Below are positions 3 to 14,248 of a stretch of 64,000 bases of DNA, one piece after another. The translations under genes and the position numbers were made by a program. This DNA comes from an uncultured Methanolobus sp. GTDB lineage: Archaea > Halobacteriota > Methanosarcinia > Methanosarcinales > Methanosarcinaceae. The stretch spans positions 1,984,001 through 2,048,000 of the forward strand of contig OY776215.1 in NCBI GenBank assembly GCA_963675495.1, read 5' to 3'. The notes under the pieces were generated by a model. That model had not been told where the DNA came from and made no database searches. It saw only the letters and a list, made by a program, of their open reading frames with translations. Within the stretch, counting starts at the first letter, position 1. Each line of letters begins with the position of its first letter.

Positions 3-2756
3 AGGACGGTATATTCTGCTACCAGTGATGAACCGGATATCAGCATACCTGTGACACCACAGATGAGCCCTCAGGCAAAGGTCGTGGCTTACATGATAAA
101 CCCAAATAGCGAGGTGTCTGTGGATGTGCTTCCATTCGATGTGGAATTCTCCACACAGGTTGACCTTTCCAGCTCTTTTGACGGTGAGTCAGTTGAGCCA
201 GAGGATAACGTAACGGTTGATTTTGATGCAGGAAGCCAGTCAATGATAGGTTTCTCCATCGTCGATGAGTCTGTCTATGCTCTCAGTGAAGGCAGGCTTA
301 ATCTAAAACAGGTTTTCGATGAGCTGGAAAAGCGCTTCATGGAACCAATGGCAGAATCGCATCCATCCTGGTACATGGAAGGTGCTTATGATACATTGGA
401 AAATGCCGGCATGGTTGTAATGGCATCTCCGGGAATAGAGGTGCCGCGTTCTGAATTGGATGAAGTAAGAGTTGATAATGCCAAATTCGCAGGTTTTGGC
501 ATGGAAGTAGATGCAGCCATGGATGACATGGTAATGGAAGAAGAAGTTGTTGAGGCACCTATGATGGAAGCTATTCCTACAGAGGAAGCTGCCGATGAGG
601 ATATGGCCGAAGGCGGTGAGCTTGCAGAAGTTCAACGTGTGCGCCAGTTCTTCCCTGAAACCTGGGTGTGGATGCCTGAGCTACTCACAGATGATGCCGG
701 TCTTGCAAGCCTTGACCTGACGGCACCGGACAGCATCACCACATGGAGGCTGCATGCAGTTTCATCAGGCTCAGAAGGAATTGGTATTTCAGAATCAAGC
801 CTGACGGTTTTCCAGGACTTTTTTGTTGATCCGGACCTTCCATACTCTGTGACAAGAGGTGAGGAATTCCCTGTGCAGGTGCAGGTCTACAATTATCTTG
901 ATACGAAGCAGGACGTTAAACTCACACTCTCAGGTGCTGACTGGTTTGATATCATCGGTGATGATGTAGAGGAAGTAACTGTTGATGCCAACGGTGTGGG
1001 CTATGCCAGTTTCACAATAAGCCCGACAGAAGTTGGTAAGCACATTGTAGAGATTACAGGCCAGACCACGAAGAGGGCGGATGCGGTCAGAAAGGATATG
1101 ATCGTGGAGGCAGAAGGCGCGACCCGTGAGCTAGTTGACAACGGGGTGCTAAGTAATGGTTCGGTTGAACTTGACACAAGCTTGCCAGAGGGCATAGTTC
1201 CTGATTCTGAAAAAGTTCTTGTGAGCTTTACTCCAAGCATAGTTGCACAAAGCATAAGCGGAGTCGATGACCTGCTGGGTATGCCTTACGGATGCGGTGA
1301 GCAGAACATGATGCTCTTCTCAACTGATGTTGAGGTATTGCGCTATCTCAAGGCAACAGGGCAGGATAATCCGGAGGTTAGGGCGAAGGCTGAGATGTAT
1401 ATAATTACTGGTTACCAGCGTGAATTGACATACCGGCACAGTGATGGCTCTTTCTCAGCATTCGGTGAAAGTGATGAGAGTGGCAGTCTCTGGTTAACAT
1501 CCTTCGTACTATCACAGTTCAGTGCTGCAAGGGATGTGACCACAATTGATGAGAACATTCTCTCTGAAGCGGCGGACTGGGTAGAATCACACCAACAGGA
1601 GGATGGTTCATGGGAGCAGGTCGGCTTTGTGATACACCAGGACATGATGGGTGGTTTGAGCGGTACCTATGCCCTATCGGCATATGTGACCCTTGCACTG
1701 GATGAGTATGGATCTGCAAGTCCTGTTGTCATGGCAAATGCGCAGAAGTACCTTGAGGATAACCTTGGCAGCCAGGATGATCCGTACGCACTTGCAATCG
1801 GGACTCTTGCCCTGCAAAAACTTAACAGCCCATTTGCTGATGAGGCTCTGAACGACCTGCTGGCAATTGCAAAACAGGATGATGATGGCACTTATTGGGG
1901 CTATGGTGACGGAGCAGTCCCATTGCCATACGAGCATGGAGGCTATAGTTACATGGCACCATCAAGCAAGAATGTGGAAACCACTGCATACGCTACACTT
2001 GCTATGATCGAAGCCAAGAACCCCACAGCCATCTCATCATTGAAATGGATATCCGCACAGCGTAATTCCAACGGTGGTTTCTCAAGTACTCAGGATACTG
2101 TTATGGCCTTCAGGGCATTGATGAGTGCAGCAGCATCTGCCGGAAGGGATATCGACGCTACAGTGCATGTGATTGCAGACGGCACCGAAGTTAAGTCAGT
2201 GGAAGTAAACCAGCAGAATTTCGATGTGGTGCAGATAATTGAGATTCCAGAAGGGACATCAGAACTCAAACTTGAAATGGAGGGCACAGGAGACCTGAAC
2301 TACCAGCTTGTCAGGCGCTTCAACGTTATCCTGCCTGATGTCATTGAGCAGAATGAGATAGAGCTTGATGTGCAGTATGATTCCACAGATGTTGCCGTGA
2401 ACGATATCGTTACAGTGAATGCCCGCGTGAAGTACAACGGTATCCGTGGCATTGGTGGCAGCATCACTTCCAGTGGAATGATGATAGTGGACCTCGCGGT
2501 TCCAACAGGTTTCAGTCCAATTTCATCAAGCCTTGAAGTCCTTAAGGAAGAAACCGTGATAACCCGCTACGAAATAGCAGGCAGAAAGGTGATTCTCTAC
2601 ATCGATGACATGCAGCCAGGTGAGGAACTGATCCTTAGTATGCAGGTAAAAGCACTGTTTCCGGTGAAGGCTATTGTTTCGGAGAGCAAGGCTTATTCTT
2701 ACTACAATCCGGAGGTTGTGGCTGAGAGTAAGGGAATGGATATGACAGTTGTTTGA
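3..2756 (+). CDS. Alpha-2-macroglobulin/thioester-containing protein, 5'-truncated by the window edge
   Basis: Frame is open from base 3. Motifs: FPETW, LTAPDSITTW, thioester PYGCGEQNM, DGSFSAFG, VETTAYA, GGFSSTQDT, and a C-terminal receptor-binding-like domain (MMIVDLAVPTGF...YSYYNP). Confidence 0.95.
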   Translation, partial: RTVYSATSDEPDISIPVTPQMSPQAKVVAYMINPNSEVSVDVLPFDVEFSTQVDLSSSFDGESVEPEDNVTVDFDAGSQSMIGFSIVDESVYALSEGRLNLKQVFDELEKRFMEPMAESHPSWYMEGAYDTLENAGMVVMASPGIEVPRSELDEVRVDNAKFAGFGMEVDAAMDDMVMEEEVVEAPMMEAIPTEEAADEDMAEGGELAEVQRVRQFFPETWVWMPELLTDDAGLASLDLTAPDSITTWRLHAVSSGSEGIGISESSLTVFQDFFVDPDLPYSVTRGEEFPVQVQVYNYLDTKQDVKLTLSGADWFDIIGDDVEEVTVDANGVGYASFTISPTEVGKHIVEITGQTTKRADAVRKDMIVEAEGATRELVDNGVLSNGSVELDTSLPEGIVPDSEKVLVSFTPSIVAQSISGVDDLLGMPYGCGEQNMMLFSTDVEVLRYLKATGQDNPEVRAKAEMYIITGYQRELTYRHSDGSFSAFGESDESGSLWLTSFVLSQFSAARDVTTIDENILSEAADWVESHQQEDGSWEQVGFVIHQDMMGGLSGTYALSAYVTLALDEYGSASPVVMANAQKYLEDNLGSQDDPYALAIGTLALQKLNSPFADEALNDLLAIAKQDDDGTYWGYGDGAVPLPYEHGGYSYMAPSSKNVETTAYATLAMIEAKNPTAISSLKWISAQRNSNGGFSSTQDTVMAFRALMSAAASAGRDIDATVHVIADGTEVKSVEVNQQNFDVVQIIEIPEGTSELKLEMEGTGDLNYQLVRRFNVILPDVIEQNEIELDVQYDSTDVAVNDIVTVNARVKYNGIRGIGGSITSSGMMIVDLAVPTGFSPISSSLEVLKEETVITRYEIAGRKVILYIDDMQPGEELILSMQVKALFPVKAIVSESKAYSYYNPEVVAESKGMDMTVV

Positions 2757-2869: not shown

Positions 2870-4162
2870 ATGAACATCACACAAATTAAGATCAAGAAAC
2901 TGTTTGATCTATATGACCATGAGATCAAACTGAATTCTAGTGAAAGAATAACTATTATCTATGGACCCAATGGTGTCGGCAAGACTATCATATTGCAGAT
3001 GTTAAGGTCTATTTTCAATACAAAATATGATATCTTCTACAAGGTTCCATTTGAAGAGTTTTCGATCGAGTTTGATAATGGTAATGTGTTATTCCTGAAA
3101 AAAAGGTATAATAAAGACAAAAACCAGGATGAGTTAATTCTTAATTTGAATGGAAATGAGACAACTCAAATTCAGCTCGATTGTATGCCCGATGCAAAAG
3201 CATTTGATAAAATTATACATAATCATCCCAACCTGAAGAAGATAGAAGTAGATGAGTGGCTGGACTTTTCAGATGGGGAAATATTGAATTCCGGGGACGT
3301 TTTGGATCGTTATGATATTCGTTTGCCTGCGCAAAAGAATGGACTTGGTTGGTTTAATGATATCAAAGAGGAAATAAATGTTGATTTCATAGAGACTCAA
3401 AGGCTTATAATACTGAGTAATTCAAGGAAAAAATATCCAACTCCAAAAACATCAATAAAGAAGACAGTTAGTAATTATTCTTCGGAATTGTCTGAAGAAG
3501 TCCAAAGGCAGCTTGCAAAATATGCAACCCTTTCTCAATCGTTAGATAGGTCTTTTCCAATTCGTCTGGCAAAAATGAAAACGGATTTGGATTACACTTA
3601 TCTTGAGCAAGATCTGTCAAAATTAGAGGAAAGAAGAAAAAATCTGATTCAGATCGGGGTTTTGGATGCTGATTACGAATTCGATTATTTGACTGATATC
3701 CCGGAAGTAAATCAGGAAAATGCCCACGTCCTTTCTGTATATATTGAGGATGTTGGGAAAAAACTGGATGTTTTTAATGACCTGACAATGAAATTAGATC
3801 TGTTTGTAAGCATAATTAACAATAGATTCGTGAATAAGCGCCTGTCAGTTAGTAAGGACAAAGGGTTTGTAATTAAAACCTTAAATGAGCGTGAGATCCA
3901 ACCAAGGGATCTTTCTTCCGGTGAGCAGCACGAATTAGTTCTCTATTACGAGCTTTTATTCAAGATCGAACCTGGTTCTCTGATCCTAATTGATGAACCT
4001 GAGATATCACTGCATATCGGATGGCAAAATGAGTTTTTAAATGACCTGATGAAAGTGATAGATCTTGCCGGGTTTGACGTGCTGATAGCGACACATTCTC
4101 CTGACATTATCGGGGACCGCTGGGACTTGACAGTATCATTAGAGGCAAAAGTTGAGAATTAG
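2870..4162 (+). CDS. ABC-type ATPase (AAA_15/AAA_21-like), PARIS AriA-like
   Basis: Walker A GPNGVGKT, signature LSSGEQ, Walker B ILIDEPE, H-loop ATHSP; no transmembrane partner nearby. Confidence 0.85.
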   Translation: MNITQIKIKKLFDLYDHEIKLNSSERITIIYGPNGVGKTIILQMLRSIFNTKYDIFYKVPFEEFSIEFDNGNVLFLKKRYNKDKNQDELILNLNGNETTQIQLDCMPDAKAFDKIIHNHPNLKKIEVDEWLDFSDGEILNSGDVLDRYDIRLPAQKNGLGWFNDIKEEINVDFIETQRLIILSNSRKKYPTPKTSIKKTVSNYSSELSEEVQRQLAKYATLSQSLDRSFPIRLAKMKTDLDYTYLEQDLSKLEERRKNLIQIGVLDADYEFDYLTDIPEVNQENAHVLSVYIEDVGKKLDVFNDLTMKLDLFVSIINNRFVNKRLSVSKDKGFVIKTLNEREIQPRDLSSGEQHELVLYYELLFKIEPGSLILIDEPEISLHIGWQNEFLNDLMKVIDLAGFDVLIATHSPDIIGDRWDLTVSLEAKVEN

Positions 4163-4170
4163 GTGTTTTT

Positions 4171-5028
4171 GTGAGAGAGCAAATTACATCACATCGCATT
4201 GCAAACCAGGTGAGGATGAGGCGTCAGGATCCTCTGAATTCTATTTTGCTTGTTGAGGGACGTACGGACAAAAGGGTATTTACAGATATCATTGACGGGG
4301 ACTATTGCGATATTGTCTATGCTGTCTATAAGGATAAATTGTTAGCTGCTCTATCAATACTGGAAAAGAGCGGGGAAAAAGGAGTTCTTGGAATAGTGGA
4401 TGCAGATTACTGGCATGTGAACCAAATTAGTCCGCAAAGATACAGTAATAATTTGCTTACCACCGATTCACATGACATAGACACAATGATACTGGCGTCA
4501 CAAGCCCTTGAAAAAATGCTCAATGAGTATGCAACGCAGTTCAAATTGCAATCACTTGGAAGGCCTATCCGGGAAATATTGCTTGAAAGCGGTGCTGTTA
4601 TTGGATATATTAGATGGGCTTCCAGAAAATATAATCTGAACATTGGTTTTAAATTCGTGAAGTTCTACAAATTTGTTGATACAAAAAATTTGAATGTCAA
4701 TACCAACAGGCTATACAAAGAACTGAAAACCAAGTCAAATAACAGGAATATGAATGATGCAGTGGTAAAAAAATATATAAATGGTCTGGTAAAATTGAAT
4801 GAAGATCTATGGAATATCTGCCAGGGCCACGATCTGGTTGAGATCTTAACCATTGGTCTTAAAGAGATATTTGGAAATCATGCCAAAGACAATCTGGACT
4901 CCGATATTGTTTCAAAGAATCTGAGACTGGCTTACAATTTATCGAATTTCATCGATACAAAGCTATATACAAGTATCAAAGAATGGGAAGAAGCAAATTC
5001 TGAATTCAGGATCTTATTAAGGTCATAG
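4171..5028 (+). CDS. DUF4435-like TOPRIM nuclease, PARIS AriB-like
   Basis: LLVEGRTD (TOPRIM Glu), GIVDADY (DxD), HDIDTM, CQGHD; 8 bp downstream of the ATPase. Confidence 0.8.
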   Translation: MREQITSHRIANQVRMRRQDPLNSILLVEGRTDKRVFTDIIDGDYCDIVYAVYKDKLLAALSILEKSGEKGVLGIVDADYWHVNQISPQRYSNNLLTTDSHDIDTMILASQALEKMLNEYATQFKLQSLGRPIREILLESGAVIGYIRWASRKYNLNIGFKFVKFYKFVDTKNLNVNTNRLYKELKTKSNNRNMNDAVVKKYINGLVKLNEDLWNICQGHDLVEILTIGLKEIFGNHAKDNLDSDIVSKNLRLAYNLSNFIDTKLYTSIKEWEEANSEFRILLRS

Positions 5029-5060
5029 TTTTTTAATGGTAGTTTTAGGTGTGTGGTGAA

Positions 5061-5657
5061 ATGGATTTCAGATTGATCTTTATAATCGGATTTGCAGGTT
5101 TTGTCGTGACAGTCATCCTGCTGGCAATTATTTTTACTCTTCTCAATGAGAAGAAGCGAGCAAAGAACCTGAATGAACAGGCCAGAGAACTTGGTTTTCA
5201 ACAGGCTTCAAAGGATGTTGTCGAAAACCTTGGTTTTGAACAGACCCGACTTGGTAACAAACAAAAAGTATACAATGTGTTCACTGGTACTTTCAACGGA
5301 CTACCGGTAATTTCCTTTGATTTGAACATCACAATTGGCAACCTGGGCTATGGAACAGGAACATCTCATGGTAACACATTCAAGTCATCTGGTTTCATTT
5401 TTAAGAGAGATGCTCCTGTTTTTGAATTGCAGCCACGCTCTCCTCTCTCCCGAAATACATATAATGAACATTTTTCCCTTAAAGGGGATGACTCTTTTAT
5501 GAACGATATCCTTGCACAAAGCGTAGGGAAAAATTATGCTATTGAATCTATAGGGACACATGTACTTTTCGTTCCTTCGGGAAAACGTATCGTGAATATG
5601 GGTGAAGAACTGAAGGCAGCTTATGAAATATTGCGGGAAATTGCTTCAAAACAGTAG
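5061..5657 (+). CDS. Hypothetical single-pass membrane protein
   Basis: GGTGA RBS before ATG 5061; N-terminal hydrophobic helix followed by basic residues. Confidence 0.7.
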   Translation: MDFRLIFIIGFAGFVVTVILLAIIFTLLNEKKRAKNLNEQARELGFQQASKDVVENLGFEQTRLGNKQKVYNVFTGTFNGLPVISFDLNITIGNLGYGTGTSHGNTFKSSGFIFKRDAPVFELQPRSPLSRNTYNEHFSLKGDDSFMNDILAQSVGKNYAIESIGTHVLFVPSGKRIVNMGEELKAAYEILREIASKQ

Positions 5658-6611: not shown

Positions 6612-9272
6612 ATGAGTAAAGTAACCCCTGCCATGCAGCAGTTTTACGCTGCCAAGGAAGAGCATAAGGACGCCCTCATATTCTTCAGGATGGGGGACTT
6701 CTATGAGTCCTTCGGAGAGGACGCGAAGACCATTGCAAAAGAGCTTGAGATAACTCTCACTAGCCGGGGGAAGAGTAAGGATGGGGAGAAGATGCCACTG
6801 GCTGGTATTCCATACCATGCTCTTGATACTTATCTTCCCCGGCTTATCAAAAAAGGATACAAGGTAGCACTCTGTGAGCAGCTTGAGGACCCCAAAAAAG
6901 CGAAAGGTGTTGTGAAAAGAGGAGTCGTAAGAGTTGTAACGCCAGGAACTGCAATGGATTCTTCCATGTTCTCAGATTCCTCTAATAATTATCTAATGGC
7001 GGTATACAAGGAAAAGGATGAATTTGGTATCTCCTTTTTGGATATTTCTACAGGTGAATTCCTGACAACACAGTTCACAGACATTGCTCCTTATAATCGA
7101 ATTATCAGTGAAGCTGCACGCATGGGTCCATCGGAATGTATCATGCCACATTCCTTGCTTGAGGATTCACATCTCACTGGTCGCATGAAGGAACTGAGGA
7201 TCATCGTTCATGATTTTGATGGGGATGCTTTTGATTTCGACAGGGCTGAAAAAGTGCTCAGGGAACACTTCAAGGTATCAACGCTGGAAGGCATGGGTTG
7301 CAGTGAACTCCCATGTGCAGTATCTTCTGCAGGTGCAGCATTACGTTATGCAATGGATACCCAGATGAGAGAATTATCACAGGTGCAGTCCCTCAAGACC
7401 TATTTTGATTCAGAGTTCATGGTGCTGGATGCTATCACTCTGAGGAACCTTGAAATTGTCAGGAACGTACGGGGCGAGGGCAATGACTCCTCACTTATCG
7501 GGGTTCTTGATGATACAAAAACACCTATGGGTAGAAGGCAGCTCCAGAAATGGCTTCTTAAGCCGCTTATCTCGGTCGATGCTATAAACGATCGTCTGGA
7601 TTCGGTTGCATGGCTTCAGGAAAATACTCTCGTTCGTTTTGATATCCGCTCCCACCTATCCTATGTAAAGGATATGGAGCGACTTGTAGGTAGGGTTATG
7701 TATGGTAATTCCAACGCACGGGACCTTGTGGCGCTGAAAAAGTCACTTGAATCAGTTCCTCTTTTACTCGAATCCCTTCGTGAATGTAAAGGTGTGCACC
7801 TGCTGGAGAACCTTGTATCTCAGCTGTCTTCTTTCGGGGAGCTGAATGGGCTTGCTGAGCTGATTGACAGGGCCATTGTAGAAGAACCTCCACTTAGTGT
7901 GAGGGATGGAGGAATGATCAAACCGGAATACAATGAGCAGCTGGATGAGCTGTTCGATCTGTCAAAGAACGGCAAACAGTGGATTGCGAAGTTCCAGCAG
8001 AAGGAGCGTGAAAGGACAGGGATCAAATCCATGAAAGTTGGCTACAACAAAGTCTTCGGTTATTATCTCGAGGTCACAAAAGCCAACATATCCCAGGTCC
8101 CTGATGATTATATCAGAAAGCAGACCATGACCAATGCCGAGCGCTTCTACACCCCTGAACTCAAGGAGCGCGAGAGTGCTATTCTTTCTGCTGATGAGAA
8201 GATGACAGCCCTGGAGTATGAATTGCTCTGTGATATTAATTCAACGGTTGCATCACATTCAAAGCAGTTGCAGGAAACAGCTGGTTTCATTGGCATGCTG
8301 GATGTACTGGCGAACCTTGCTGAAGTGGCTGCCAACAACAATTACGTAAGGCCCTCGATAACCCCTGATTGCAGGCTTCTTATCAGGGATGGCAGACACT
8401 GTGTAGTGGAAAGCACAGTTCCGGGCGGTTTTGTACCAAATGATACGGAAATGGATTGTAGCGAGAACCAGTTCCAGCTGATAACCGGGCCCAACATGGC
8501 CGGTAAGTCCACTTACATGAGACAGATTGCCATGATCGTAATTATGGCACAGGCTGGCTCCTTTGTGCCTGCTTCCCATGCTTCAATAGGTATTGTGGAC
8601 AGGGTGTTCACAAGGGTTGGGGCTTTTGATGACCTTGCAAGCGGGCAGAGTACTTTTATGGTTGAGATGGTGGAGCTTGCCAACATCCTGAACAACGCAA
8701 CCCCGAAAAGTCTGGTGCTGCTGGATGAGATTGGCAGAGGTACCAGTACTTATGACGGTTACAGTATCGCAAAGGCAGTTGTAGAGTACATTCACAACAA
8801 AGGACGTGTAGGTGTAAGGTCACTATTTGCCACACATTACCATCAGCTCACGGATATTGCAGGGAGCCTTAAACGCGTAAGGAATTACCACATTGCTGTG
8901 AAAGAAGATGGCGATGACCTTGTCTTCCTGCGCAAGATAGTGCCCGGTGCAACTGACAGGAGCTATGGTATTCATGTTGCAAGGATTGCAGGTGTCCCAC
9001 ACGCAGTCACCACGCGGGCAAAAGAGATTCTTGAGGATATCGAGGACGAGTGTGTTATTACTGATGATGAACGCAAGAGCAGGAAGAAGCAACGTAGCAG
9101 TGCCAAATATACACAGGTAATACTGTTTGATCAGGAATCATCCTATGGTGAACCTGCCTCTCATCCTGTAATTGGGGAATTGAAAGATATGGACCTGAAT
9201 TCAATGACACCTCTTGAAGCACTTAACATGCTCAGTCAACTAAAAAGCAAACTTCTTGAAGAGGATAAATAA
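6612..9272 (+). CDS. mutS: DNA mismatch repair protein MutS
   Basis: TPAMQQF, FRMGDFYE, ITGPNMAGKSTY, STFMVEM, LLDEIGRGT, FATHYH, SYGIHVA. Confidence 0.98.
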   Translation: MSKVTPAMQQFYAAKEEHKDALIFFRMGDFYESFGEDAKTIAKELEITLTSRGKSKDGEKMPLAGIPYHALDTYLPRLIKKGYKVALCEQLEDPKKAKGVVKRGVVRVVTPGTAMDSSMFSDSSNNYLMAVYKEKDEFGISFLDISTGEFLTTQFTDIAPYNRIISEAARMGPSECIMPHSLLEDSHLTGRMKELRIIVHDFDGDAFDFDRAEKVLREHFKVSTLEGMGCSELPCAVSSAGAALRYAMDTQMRELSQVQSLKTYFDSEFMVLDAITLRNLEIVRNVRGEGNDSSLIGVLDDTKTPMGRRQLQKWLLKPLISVDAINDRLDSVAWLQENTLVRFDIRSHLSYVKDMERLVGRVMYGNSNARDLVALKKSLESVPLLLESLRECKGVHLLENLVSQLSSFGELNGLAELIDRAIVEEPPLSVRDGGMIKPEYNEQLDELFDLSKNGKQWIAKFQQKERERTGIKSMKVGYNKVFGYYLEVTKANISQVPDDYIRKQTMTNAERFYTPELKERESAILSADEKMTALEYELLCDINSTVASHSKQLQETAGFIGMLDVLANLAEVAANNNYVRPSITPDCRLLIRDGRHCVVESTVPGGFVPNDTEMDCSENQFQLITGPNMAGKSTYMRQIAMIVIMAQAGSFVPASHASIGIVDRVFTRVGAFDDLASGQSTFMVEMVELANILNNATPKSLVLLDEIGRGTSTYDGYSIAKAVVEYIHNKGRVGVRSLFATHYHQLTDIAGSLKRVRNYHIAVKEDGDDLVFLRKIVPGATDRSYGIHVARIAGVPHAVTTRAKEILEDIEDECVITDDERKSRKKQRSSAKYTQVILFDQESSYGEPASHPVIGELKDMDLNSMTPLEALNMLSQLKSKLLEEDK

Positions 9273-12653: not shown

Positions 12654-13664
12654 ATGATCGACCCGGTAAATAAATCAAAGATACCAGACGAGTGGCTGGA
12701 TCGCTCAAAGATGCCACGTGATGAGCTGGAAGAAGGTATAAAGAACGGAATGCTTGTAGTTCTAAGTGATGGTTCTGTACTGAAAAGAGGATATACTACC
12801 GGGACCACTGCAGCAATGGCTGCAAAGGCATCAGTTCTTTCCATTGCAGGTGAGGTCACACATATTTCTGTACCAACATCAGTGGGACTCCGTGCAGAGA
12901 TGGATGTCAAAGGCAACAAGGGGCATGCTGTTGCAATAAAAATGAATAACGATCACGAATCTGATATTACCAGGGGTCTTGAGTTCGCTGCTGATGCCAG
13001 GGAAGCAGATGGGATTACTGTTTATGCAGGTGAAGGAATAGGTATTGTCACCCGCAGTGGCCTGGAATCAAAAAAAGGTCATCCGGCAATCAATCCTCAT
13101 CCCATGGAACAGATAAAAGCCTCAATTGCCGAAGCTGTTGAAGAACTTGGGCTCAAAGGGGCAGAAGTTACCATTTATCTCCCACACGGCAAAGAAATAG
13201 CAAAAGAGACCCTTAACAGCCGTATCGGCATCATTGATGGGATCTCTATTCTTGGCAGTACAGGATTTGTGGAGCCATGGAATGATCACCTTGGCGAGAT
13301 GAAAGGTGATCTTATCAGACATTCTGACAAGGTAGTGCTTACAACCGGAAGAGTGGGTATCCGTTACTCTACCATGCTCTTTCCTGATCACACTGTTGTA
13401 CTTGCCGGAAGTCGTATATCTGAAGCACTTGATGCAGCTCATGGTGATGTTGTCATTTGCGGACTTCCCGGTCTTGTTTTGAAATGGGGAAATCCTGATA
13501 TGCTGAAGGGCAGTGGCTTTGCCACAGTTGTTGAAATGCTTGATATTGATCCGCAGAACCAGCGTCTGAAACAGGCTTTTAATATGGCTGTGGAAAAAGG
13601 CAATGGTGCCCGTATTGTTGTTGTTGACAGGGATGGAACTGTTTTGATGGATAGCGGGGAATAA
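12654..13664 (+). CDS. cbiD: Cobalt-precorrin-5B C1-methyltransferase
   Basis: [40 protein letters not shown]. Confidence 0.93.
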
Positions 13665-13666
13665 AC

Positions 13667-14248
13667 ATGATAATAGTGGGTGTCGGTGTCGGACCTAAAA
13701 TGCTGACCCAGGAAGCCATAGAAGTAATCAGCAATGCTTCTGTTGTGTATGGTTCCAGACGCTCCATCGAACTTGCGGAAGAATTCATAAAATGTGAATC
13801 TCTTCTGATCAAGGATTACAAGAACCTTCATCTTTTACCTGAAGATGCTGTTATTTTGTCCACAGGTGATCCTATGTTCTCAGGGCTTGGTAAATTTGCC
13901 ACAGAGAATGACAGGGTTGTTACAGGCGTATCTTCAATACAGGCAGCATGTTCACGTTTTCATGTGGAGATGTCAAACCTTGCTCTTATCACTGCACATG
14001 GCAGGGATCCTGCTCCGGCAAAAGAGGCTTTCATAAGGGAAATTAGCCTGGGAAAGAACATCTTTCTGCTTCCAGCTGACAGTTTTGGCCCAAAGGAAGT
14101 TGCTGCAGTTCTTCAGGAAATGAGTGTAGATGCTCGTATATGCATCTACGAGGATATAGGATATCCTCACGAACGTGCGGTATGCGGTACAGTGGATGAA
14201 CCACCGGAGAATCACTCTGATATGTACTGTATTGTGATTGTACGTTAA
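13667..14248 (+). CDS. cbiE: Cobalt-precorrin-7 C5-methyltransferase
   Basis: IVGVGVGP, LSTGDPMFSGLG, GVSSIQAA; adjacent to cbiD. Confidence 0.85.
   Translation: MIIVGVGVGPKMLTQEAIEVISNASVVYGSRRSIELAEEFIKCESLLIKDYKNLHLLPEDAVILSTGDPMFSGLGKFATENDRVVTGVSSIQAACSRFHVEMSNLALITAHGRDPAPAKEAFIREISLGKNIFLLPADSFGPKEVAAVLQEMSVDARICIYEDIGYPHERAVCGTVDEPPENHSDMYCIVIVR

Follow-up and report, generated by a model that had tools for sequence, protein, structure and literature searches.

The stretch of DNA analysed here, which we call the window, comprises 64,000 nucleotides of an uncultured Methanolobus (C1:1984001-2048000 of a complete 2.87-Mb genome) and opens inside a gene for a thioester protein of the alpha-macroglobulin/TEP superfamily. 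As predicted from its sequence and from structural models, this archaeal protein has the architecture of animal CD109, A2M and TEP1: a macroglobulin (MG) scaffold, a bait-region domain, a CUB-TED unit carrying the thioester motif GCGEQ, and a C-terminal MG8/receptor-binding domain (RBD). By analogy, it is probably a lipid-anchored protease trap that guards the space under the S-layer, a view we hold with moderate confidence because the protein is built like a monomeric, tethered alpha-macroglobulin, of which CD109 is the best-studied case.

The gene occupies window positions 3-2756 (+), where the list of open reading frames (ORFs) and the translation give 917 open codons in frame 3 and then a stop. 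It is truncated by the 5' end of the window: its first 497 codons lie outside, at G000:C1:1982512-1984002, and the whole gene, present as a single copy in its own genome, spans G000:C1:1982512-1986756 (L002:10512-14756). With a GTG start the ORF has 1414 codons, and with the ATG at L002:10521, which has GGAG ahead of it, it encodes 1411 residues, the length of an identical database protein (P0003). Residues are numbered here from the GTG, giving Cys928 and Gln931 for the thioester and His1042 for the histidine discussed below.

Along the full protein, Pfam finds in order MG2 (E 2.9e-21), MG3 (1.2e-13), MG4 (1.3e-07), A2M_BRD (1.1e-22), A2M (1.1e-28), TED_complement (1.5e-77) and A2M_recep (2.5e-14), the last two matches lying far past chance, and the MG scaffold, bait-region domain, CGEQ TED and MG8/RBD of alpha-macroglobulins and TEPs are all represented. 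Within the window, always on the + strand, the end of A2M_BRD comes first (3..284; residues 462-591, of which 498-591 are inside), followed by a putative bait (456..617; residues 649-702), the MG7-type A2M domain (660..929; residues 717-806), the TED (1239..2123; residues 910-1204), which is modelled as an alpha/alpha toroid, and the MG8/receptor-binding-type domain (2469..2720; residues 1320-1403), which is modelled as a beta-sandwich. The GCGEQ motif (GGATGCGGTGAGCAG) stands in the frame 3 translation at 1290..1304, and His1042 (codon CAC, 1635..1637) follows 114 residues past the thioester Cys, within the stretch GFVIHQDMMGG that begins at 1623. A first-pass annotation, made from the letters of the window, had picked out the motif, the His and a C-terminal receptor-binding-type domain, and all are borne out. 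Its likening to complement C3 fares less well: neither an anaphylatoxin nor a C345C/NTR domain gives a Pfam match at E up to 0.01 in the full protein, which is therefore CD109/A2M-like rather than C3-like.

An AlphaFold2 model of the last 917 residues (mean pLDDT 78.1, pTM 0.62) predicts beta-sandwich domains, a TED that forms a helical toroid set in between beta-strands, and a C-terminal beta-sandwich, along with two disordered stretches. The longer of these (residues 649-702; model residues 152-205, pLDDT below 50) coincides with the least conserved portion of the mature protein in 52 orthologs of at least 63% identity, among which mean pairwise identity is 0.73 overall and 0.33-0.45, with indels, over residues 631-690; residues 391-450 form a second variable patch. 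Disordered, acidic, Met-rich and hypervariable, the 649-702 segment looks like a putative bait region.

Comparison with solved structures places the protein with animal members of the superfamily. Sequence matches are to human A2M (E 2.9e-124), CD109 (5.6e-114), A2ML1 (1.6e-107), C4 (3e-84), TEP1 (4.1e-84) and C3 (8.7e-76), and no bacterial A2M is among the 60 best solved-structure matches listed. Colinearity with Trichoplax CD109 extends over residues 116-1406, from end to end (29% identity, E 7e-148), whereas E. coli YfhM aligns by BLASTP over short stretches only, at 21-22% identity and E 4e-9 and 1e-4. A fold search with the 917-residue model ranks native CD109 best (8s3o, E 9.4e-59, TMq 0.58), then A2ML1, A2M, C5, TEP1 and C3, and no bacterial A2M is among the 50 Foldseek matches listed, a list that is not exhaustive. 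A separate model of the TED (pLDDT 87.1), aligned to 48,161 representative chains, fits C3d (Z 37.5, rmsd 1.7 Å, 276 residues) and C4Adg (Z 37.5, rmsd 1.7 Å, 279 residues), and also human A2M (Z 36.1, rmsd 4.7 Å, 312 residues), CD109 (Z 33.8, rmsd 3.4 Å, 294 residues) and TEP1 (Z 32.9, rmsd 3.6 Å, 284 residues). Salmonella A2M (Z 17.2, rmsd 5.8 Å, 268 residues) and E. coli A2M (Z 17.2, rmsd 4.6 Å, 259 residues) both score lower than unrelated enzymes with a toroid fold, for example cellobiose 2-epimerase (Z 19.7). The alpha/alpha toroid is common to squalene cyclases as well, which accounts for the only NCBIfam matches, all of them sub-threshold and all to squalene cyclases; PADLOC gives no match to the thioester protein. 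The earlier proposal that the protein is closer to animal TEP/CD109/C3 than to YfhM therefore stands on sequence E-values, the Pfam domain set and TED fold scores alike. Its companion remark, that Methanosarcinaceae have no need of PBP1C, also agrees with the data: no transglycosylase (PF00912) and no PBP1C-type gene is found among the neighbours of the gene or anywhere in the complete genome.

The thioester motif and the His are highly conserved. In 57 aligned sequences from archaea, bacteria and animals the C, G, E and Q of the motif are invariant and the His1042 column is at least 90% conserved, and GCGEQ and the His are each present in 113/113 full-length matches of the archaeal search, 16 of these rows reading HH.EI.GG at the His motif. 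HMMER alignments set His1042 opposite the His of CD109 (VIHSELQGG), C4-B (VIHRSMQGG), TEP1 (VWHKDMQGG) and A2ML1 (LLHTAMKGG), at the catalytic-His position of these proteins; C3 and C3d chains match the region too, with residue-level pairing displayed for the other four proteins and not for C3. The motif classes in a broader alignment of 154 rows are CGEQ (77), CFEQ (74), CMEQ (2) and the CLEQ of YfhM, the CGEQ rows being archaea, some bacteria and animals, and the CFEQ rows long bacterial proteins. The His is present there in 16/16 archaeal rows, 7/8 of Planctomycetota/Acidobacteriota type, 8/8 of Chloroflexota type and 32/42 of the animal clade, whose other rows carry D, N or S. Judged from these alignments, the His is usual across the entire CGEQ branch and is not the C3 hallmark that the first-pass annotation had taken it for. 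According to Dodds, Law and colleagues, such a His reportedly converts the activated thioester to an acyl-imidazole with reactivity towards water and hydroxyls.

The CFEQ sequences (P0150-P0270) are a separate, large bacterial A2M-like family of 1500-2080 residues with the motif GCFEQTS, one member of which is labelled YfaS by its source. They often read LHAESWGR, and a His falls in the same column in 33/76 rows, in a region where the alignment is less certain.

Retrieval of the full gene also bears on where the protein resides. The N-terminal sequence MKFTGKNTVSFITLVSIFAILMSGC/IGSD forms a signal peptide with a lipobox-like motif at its end, the sole hydrophobic anchor seen, and is followed by a poorly conserved Ser/Asp-rich stretch of ~30 residues. 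A surface location, as had been suggested from the window, is thus likely, since the protein has an N-terminal signal peptide with a lipobox. A strict lipobox pattern is matched in 78/113 full-length matches of the archaeal search; the other 35 mostly have a hydrophobic N-terminal segment, a near-lipobox outside the pattern, or a truncated N-terminus.

On these grounds the protein would be exported and then anchored on the outside of the cytoplasmic membrane, beneath the S-layer, through its lipobox Cys and the ~30-residue linker. A foreign endopeptidase would cleave the exposed, disordered and fast-evolving bait (residues ~649-702), and the ensuing conformational change would expose the Cys928-Gln931 thioester. 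His1042 would then attack the thioester to form an acyl-imidazole, from which the acyl group would pass to a hydroxyl or amine of the protease, or to water, leaving the protease covalently bound to the cell-attached trap and sterically hindered. In function it would correspond to monomeric traps that depend on conjugation, for instance CD109 and A2ML1, and to the role proposed for periplasmic YfhM. A study of CD109 describes it as a monomeric, membrane-tethered trap that needs bait cleavage, conformational change and thioester conjugation of the protease, and states that monomeric alpha-macroglobulins inhibit only with a covalent step (PMC12927315).

Several considerations weigh against a tethered protease trap. 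We infer thioester formation, bait cleavage and conjugation by homology, and the lipid anchor draws on general background, namely that archaeal lipobox proteins are lipid-modified. Some 25 ANME-2 homologs have no lipobox Cys, so not every member is tethered in this way. Because water and hydroxyls react fast with thioesters of the His type, a glycan or surface, and not a protease, could be what the protein really targets. Nor is there a partner gene conserved beside the thioester gene in the 17 loci compared, which thus give no hint of a pathway.

An exhaustive search returns 12,490 relatives at E up to 0.001. The named relatives include proteins of Methanolobus species (76-90% identity), Methanococcoides and Methanomethylovorans (67-69%), ANME-2 and Methanogaster (about 58%), Altiarchaeota (53%) and Micrarchaeota (49%), as well as of Undinarchaeales, Planctomycetota, Acidobacteriota, fish, Trichoplax, amphioxus, mussel and sponge. 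We built a FastTree phylogeny of 154 rows rooted on YfhM, and a quick IQ-TREE phylogeny (LG+G4, 63 rows, 1327 columns) rooted on the CFEQ group, from which YfhM was left out because of its long branch; the tree set holds no C3, C4 or C5 sequence, and several 'animal' rows are assigned by tree position. The archaeal proteins form one clade (SH-aLRT 95 with IQ-TREE, only 69 with FastTree), whose sister is a bacterial clade with Planctomycetota and Acidobacteriota proteins (support 98), and the two together are sister to a clade of Chloroflexota and animal proteins (support 100). Within that clade both trees agree that the Chloroflexota-type branch splits off first and the animals form one inner clade. 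The archaeal protein thus belongs to a prokaryotic TEP-like clade and not to the YfhM type, and the closeness to metazoan proteins proposed from the window does not extend to grouping with animals in the tree, where the archaeal protein sits beside the Planctomycetota/Acidobacteriota proteins. Constraining all 28 prokaryotic CGEQ rows to unite costs 51.6 lnL (p-AU 0.045), a borderline result for a group that was named after the tree had been seen. An old transfer between bacteria and archaea inside the TEP-like clade is possible.

The Chloroflexota TEP-like proteins, the prokaryotic group nearest to animal TEPs in both trees, are numerous. Among 599 candidate stretches from species-representative genomes, at least 559 code for a relative, the label resting on the best 80 stretches, nearly all of which are titled Chloroflexota, and the genes at loci L004-L083 (Chloroflexia, Dehalococcoidia, Anaerolineae) have GCGEQ and the His. 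Of the proteins sampled, two have a lipobox-like Cys: P0130, which also has a twin-arginine signal, and P0128. Elsewhere among the relatives, the 90%-identity cluster of P0124 has members labelled as Altiarchaeales and as Atribacteria metagenome-assembled genomes, which reflects either mis-binning or recent inter-domain transfer.

Closer to home, matches at E up to 1e-20 occur in 47/121 genomes of the family to which this Methanolobus belongs, and they are distributed by genus: 20/20 in its own genus and 13/13 in genus g10, with 0/19 in genus g7, which is tentatively Methanosarcina. Full-length matches have no internal stops, although a few in its own genus and g10 are broken by contig ends or spread over adjacent frames. 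In a sample of the phylum, 21/301 genomes and 7/100 genera have a match at E up to 1e-30; one such homolog, from another family (G293:C136:1021-3675 (+)), has one in-frame TAG and could be a pseudogene or contain a pyrrolysine read-through codon. An FMN reductase gene lies upstream of the thioester gene in 11/17 loci, and mutS lies downstream in 13/17 loci across genera, followed by mutL in 6/17. The place between mutS and the FMN reductase gene is conserved and indicates a stable position in the core genome, and the gene is old and vertically kept in the Methanolobus/Methanococcoides lineage.

Three other explanations have to be set beside the tethered trap. One is that the protein acts like a complement opsonin, with His-catalysed transfer onto glycan hydroxyls of a virus, episymbiont or predator, so that the target is marked or immobilised. 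The TED is nearly superposable on C3d, the His aligns at the position that, according to work by Dodds, Law and colleagues, reportedly gives C4-B and C3 their hydroxyl reactivity, and the family also occurs in DPANN and ANME-2 archaea, lineages in tight cell-cell contact. We nevertheless consider an opsonin unlikely. Pfam matches to an anaphylatoxin or C345C domain are absent, the 17 loci share no neighbouring gene that resembles a convertase or receptor, and a tether to the cell's own membrane would make diffusion to a target impossible. The His, moreover, is shared with CD109, TEP1 and A2ML1, and CD109 and A2ML1 are characterised in the CD109 study as conjugation-dependent protease traps (PMC12927315). 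Another possibility is a covalent adhesin or matrix cross-linker that fixes the cell to a partner cell, to a mineral-bound polymer or to its own S-layer, much as Gram-positive bacteria have adhesins with thioester domains. In its favour are the large, surface-tethered beta-sandwich array with a predicted reactive thioester, and the homologs in DPANN lineages and in ANME-2, which form consortia. An architecture with a bait-region domain and an A2M-type thioester that is buried, however, implies a proteolytic trigger and not spontaneous adhesion, a hypervariable bait better suits an arms race with proteases, and in the genomes searched free-living Methanolobus and Methanococcoides keep the gene universally; an adhesin is, in our judgement, also unlikely.

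The third alternative is an ordinary YfhM/ECAM-type A2M recently acquired from bacteria. In its favour, PMC8416519 calls the Methanolobus psychrophilus ortholog close to bacterial A2M homologs and probably acquired by horizontal gene transfer. Both proteins are lipoproteins, and the archaeal clade is sister to a bacterial clade in our trees. The genome, however, has no pbpC, and the synteny shared across genera shows that the gene was not acquired recently. The YfhM type itself is ruled out by the short, low-identity BLASTP alignments, by a Pfam domain set without any of the six bMG domains of YfhM, and by TED scores to Salmonella and E. coli A2M that are no better than those of unrelated toroid enzymes, and we regard this alternative as very improbable indeed. 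A tethered protease trap accordingly remains the explanation we prefer.

In the window, a PARIS-like pair of defence genes lies directly downstream of the thioester gene: an AAA_15/AAA_21 ATPase at 2870-4162 (+), with a PADLOC match to AriA (3.2e-26), and a 285-residue protein at 4171-5028 (+), with a match to AriB (1.2e-19). After the pair come a 202-residue ORF without a family match (5049-5657 (+)) and mutS (6612-9269 (+)), which has all five MutS Pfam domains. The pair occupies a short variable interval before mutS and is found in only 2/17 loci, here and in the closest relative, and a functional link between it and the thioester protein was rejected for that reason. On the other side, just upstream of the thioester gene, 5/17 loci have members of a family of 224-450 residues, without a Pfam match in the one member tested and sometimes in two or three copies (L099:11406-12716 (-) and 12857-14167 (-); also L085, L087, L088 and L098).

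The gene family has been annotated before, as 'alpha-2-macroglobulin family protein' or 'CD109 antigen' in databases. Bacterial A2Ms and horizontal gene transfer are reportedly the subject of work by Budd et al. in 2004. Makarova et al. singled out the ortholog of M. psychrophilus, as described above (PMC8416519). Our literature search found no published account of the His in the archaeal proteins, although the supplements of PMC8416519 may list the family and this His, and none of the archaeal proteins as CD109/C3d-like rather than YfhM-like or of the Chloroflexota relatives. The main text of a 2026 A2M review names only metazoans and Gram-negative bacteria as holders and uses the word 'archaea' zero times (PMC12939704).

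What these proteins add is an apparently complete, animal-style thioester machinery, with predicted bait, CGEQ, catalytic-type His and C3d-like TED, strictly conserved in methanogenic archaea. For methanogen biology it suggests selection by proteases that attack the cell envelope, and it is of some interest to the question of how the complement/TEP family arose. Both the archaeal and the Chloroflexota proteins offer simple, single-gene models for the His-type thioester mechanism and for that question. A more ambitious and doubtful idea is that His-type thioester proteins with a membrane tether are a surface-immunity device of archaea and monoderm bacteria, which upon proteolytic attack may covalently tag a protease, virus or episymbiont touching the cell, and that animal TEPs and complement descend from such prokaryotic stock and not the other way round.

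Among known systems, YfhM (ECAM) and Salmonella A2M share with the archaeal protein the superfamily, a lipoprotein anchor, a CxEQ thioester and a proposed role as an envelope-guarding protease trap. YfhM differs in its length of 1653 residues, its CLEQ motif, its place adjoining pbpC in E. coli and its bMG1, bMG2, bMG3, bMG5, bMG6 and bMG10 domains, for none of which the archaeal protein has a Pfam match; a Tyr stands in its His column, in a stretch that is gapped and poorly aligned. The TEP-like proteins of Planctomycetota, Acidobacteriota and Chloroflexota are, in the trees, the relatives nearest to the archaeal proteins from outside the archaea, with GCGEQNM, H..M.GG, a similar architecture and 39-52% identity over the 917-residue window ORF, but they have bacterial hosts and several are longer (1484-1905 residues). 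They are annotated only as 'alpha-2-macroglobulin family' or 'CD109 antigen', and our literature search found no characterised member.

Complement C3 and C4 resemble the archaeal protein in a nearly superposable TED (C3d and C4Adg, 33-36% identity), in CGEQ and in the His, aligned with that of C4-B. They are longer, with chains of 1641-1663 residues for C3 and 1744 for C4 against 1411, and the archaeal protein has neither their anaphylatoxin and C345C/NTR domains nor their chain-processing site and convertase partners. CD109 is the best fold match of the 917-residue model. Its anchor is a C-terminal glycosylphosphatidylinositol (GPI) and not an N-terminal lipobox, the archaeal bait is acidic and Met-rich, furin-type processing is not evident, the host is an archaeon, and the trees place the archaeal protein outside the animal clade to which CD109 proper belongs. 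Yet the two have nearly the same length (1411 residues against the 1447 of chain 8s3o_A), the same Pfam domain set, GCGEQ, a His at the equal position (VIHQDMMGG in the archaeal protein, VIHSELQGG in CD109) and a membrane tether, which in the archaeal protein is predicted from its lipobox.

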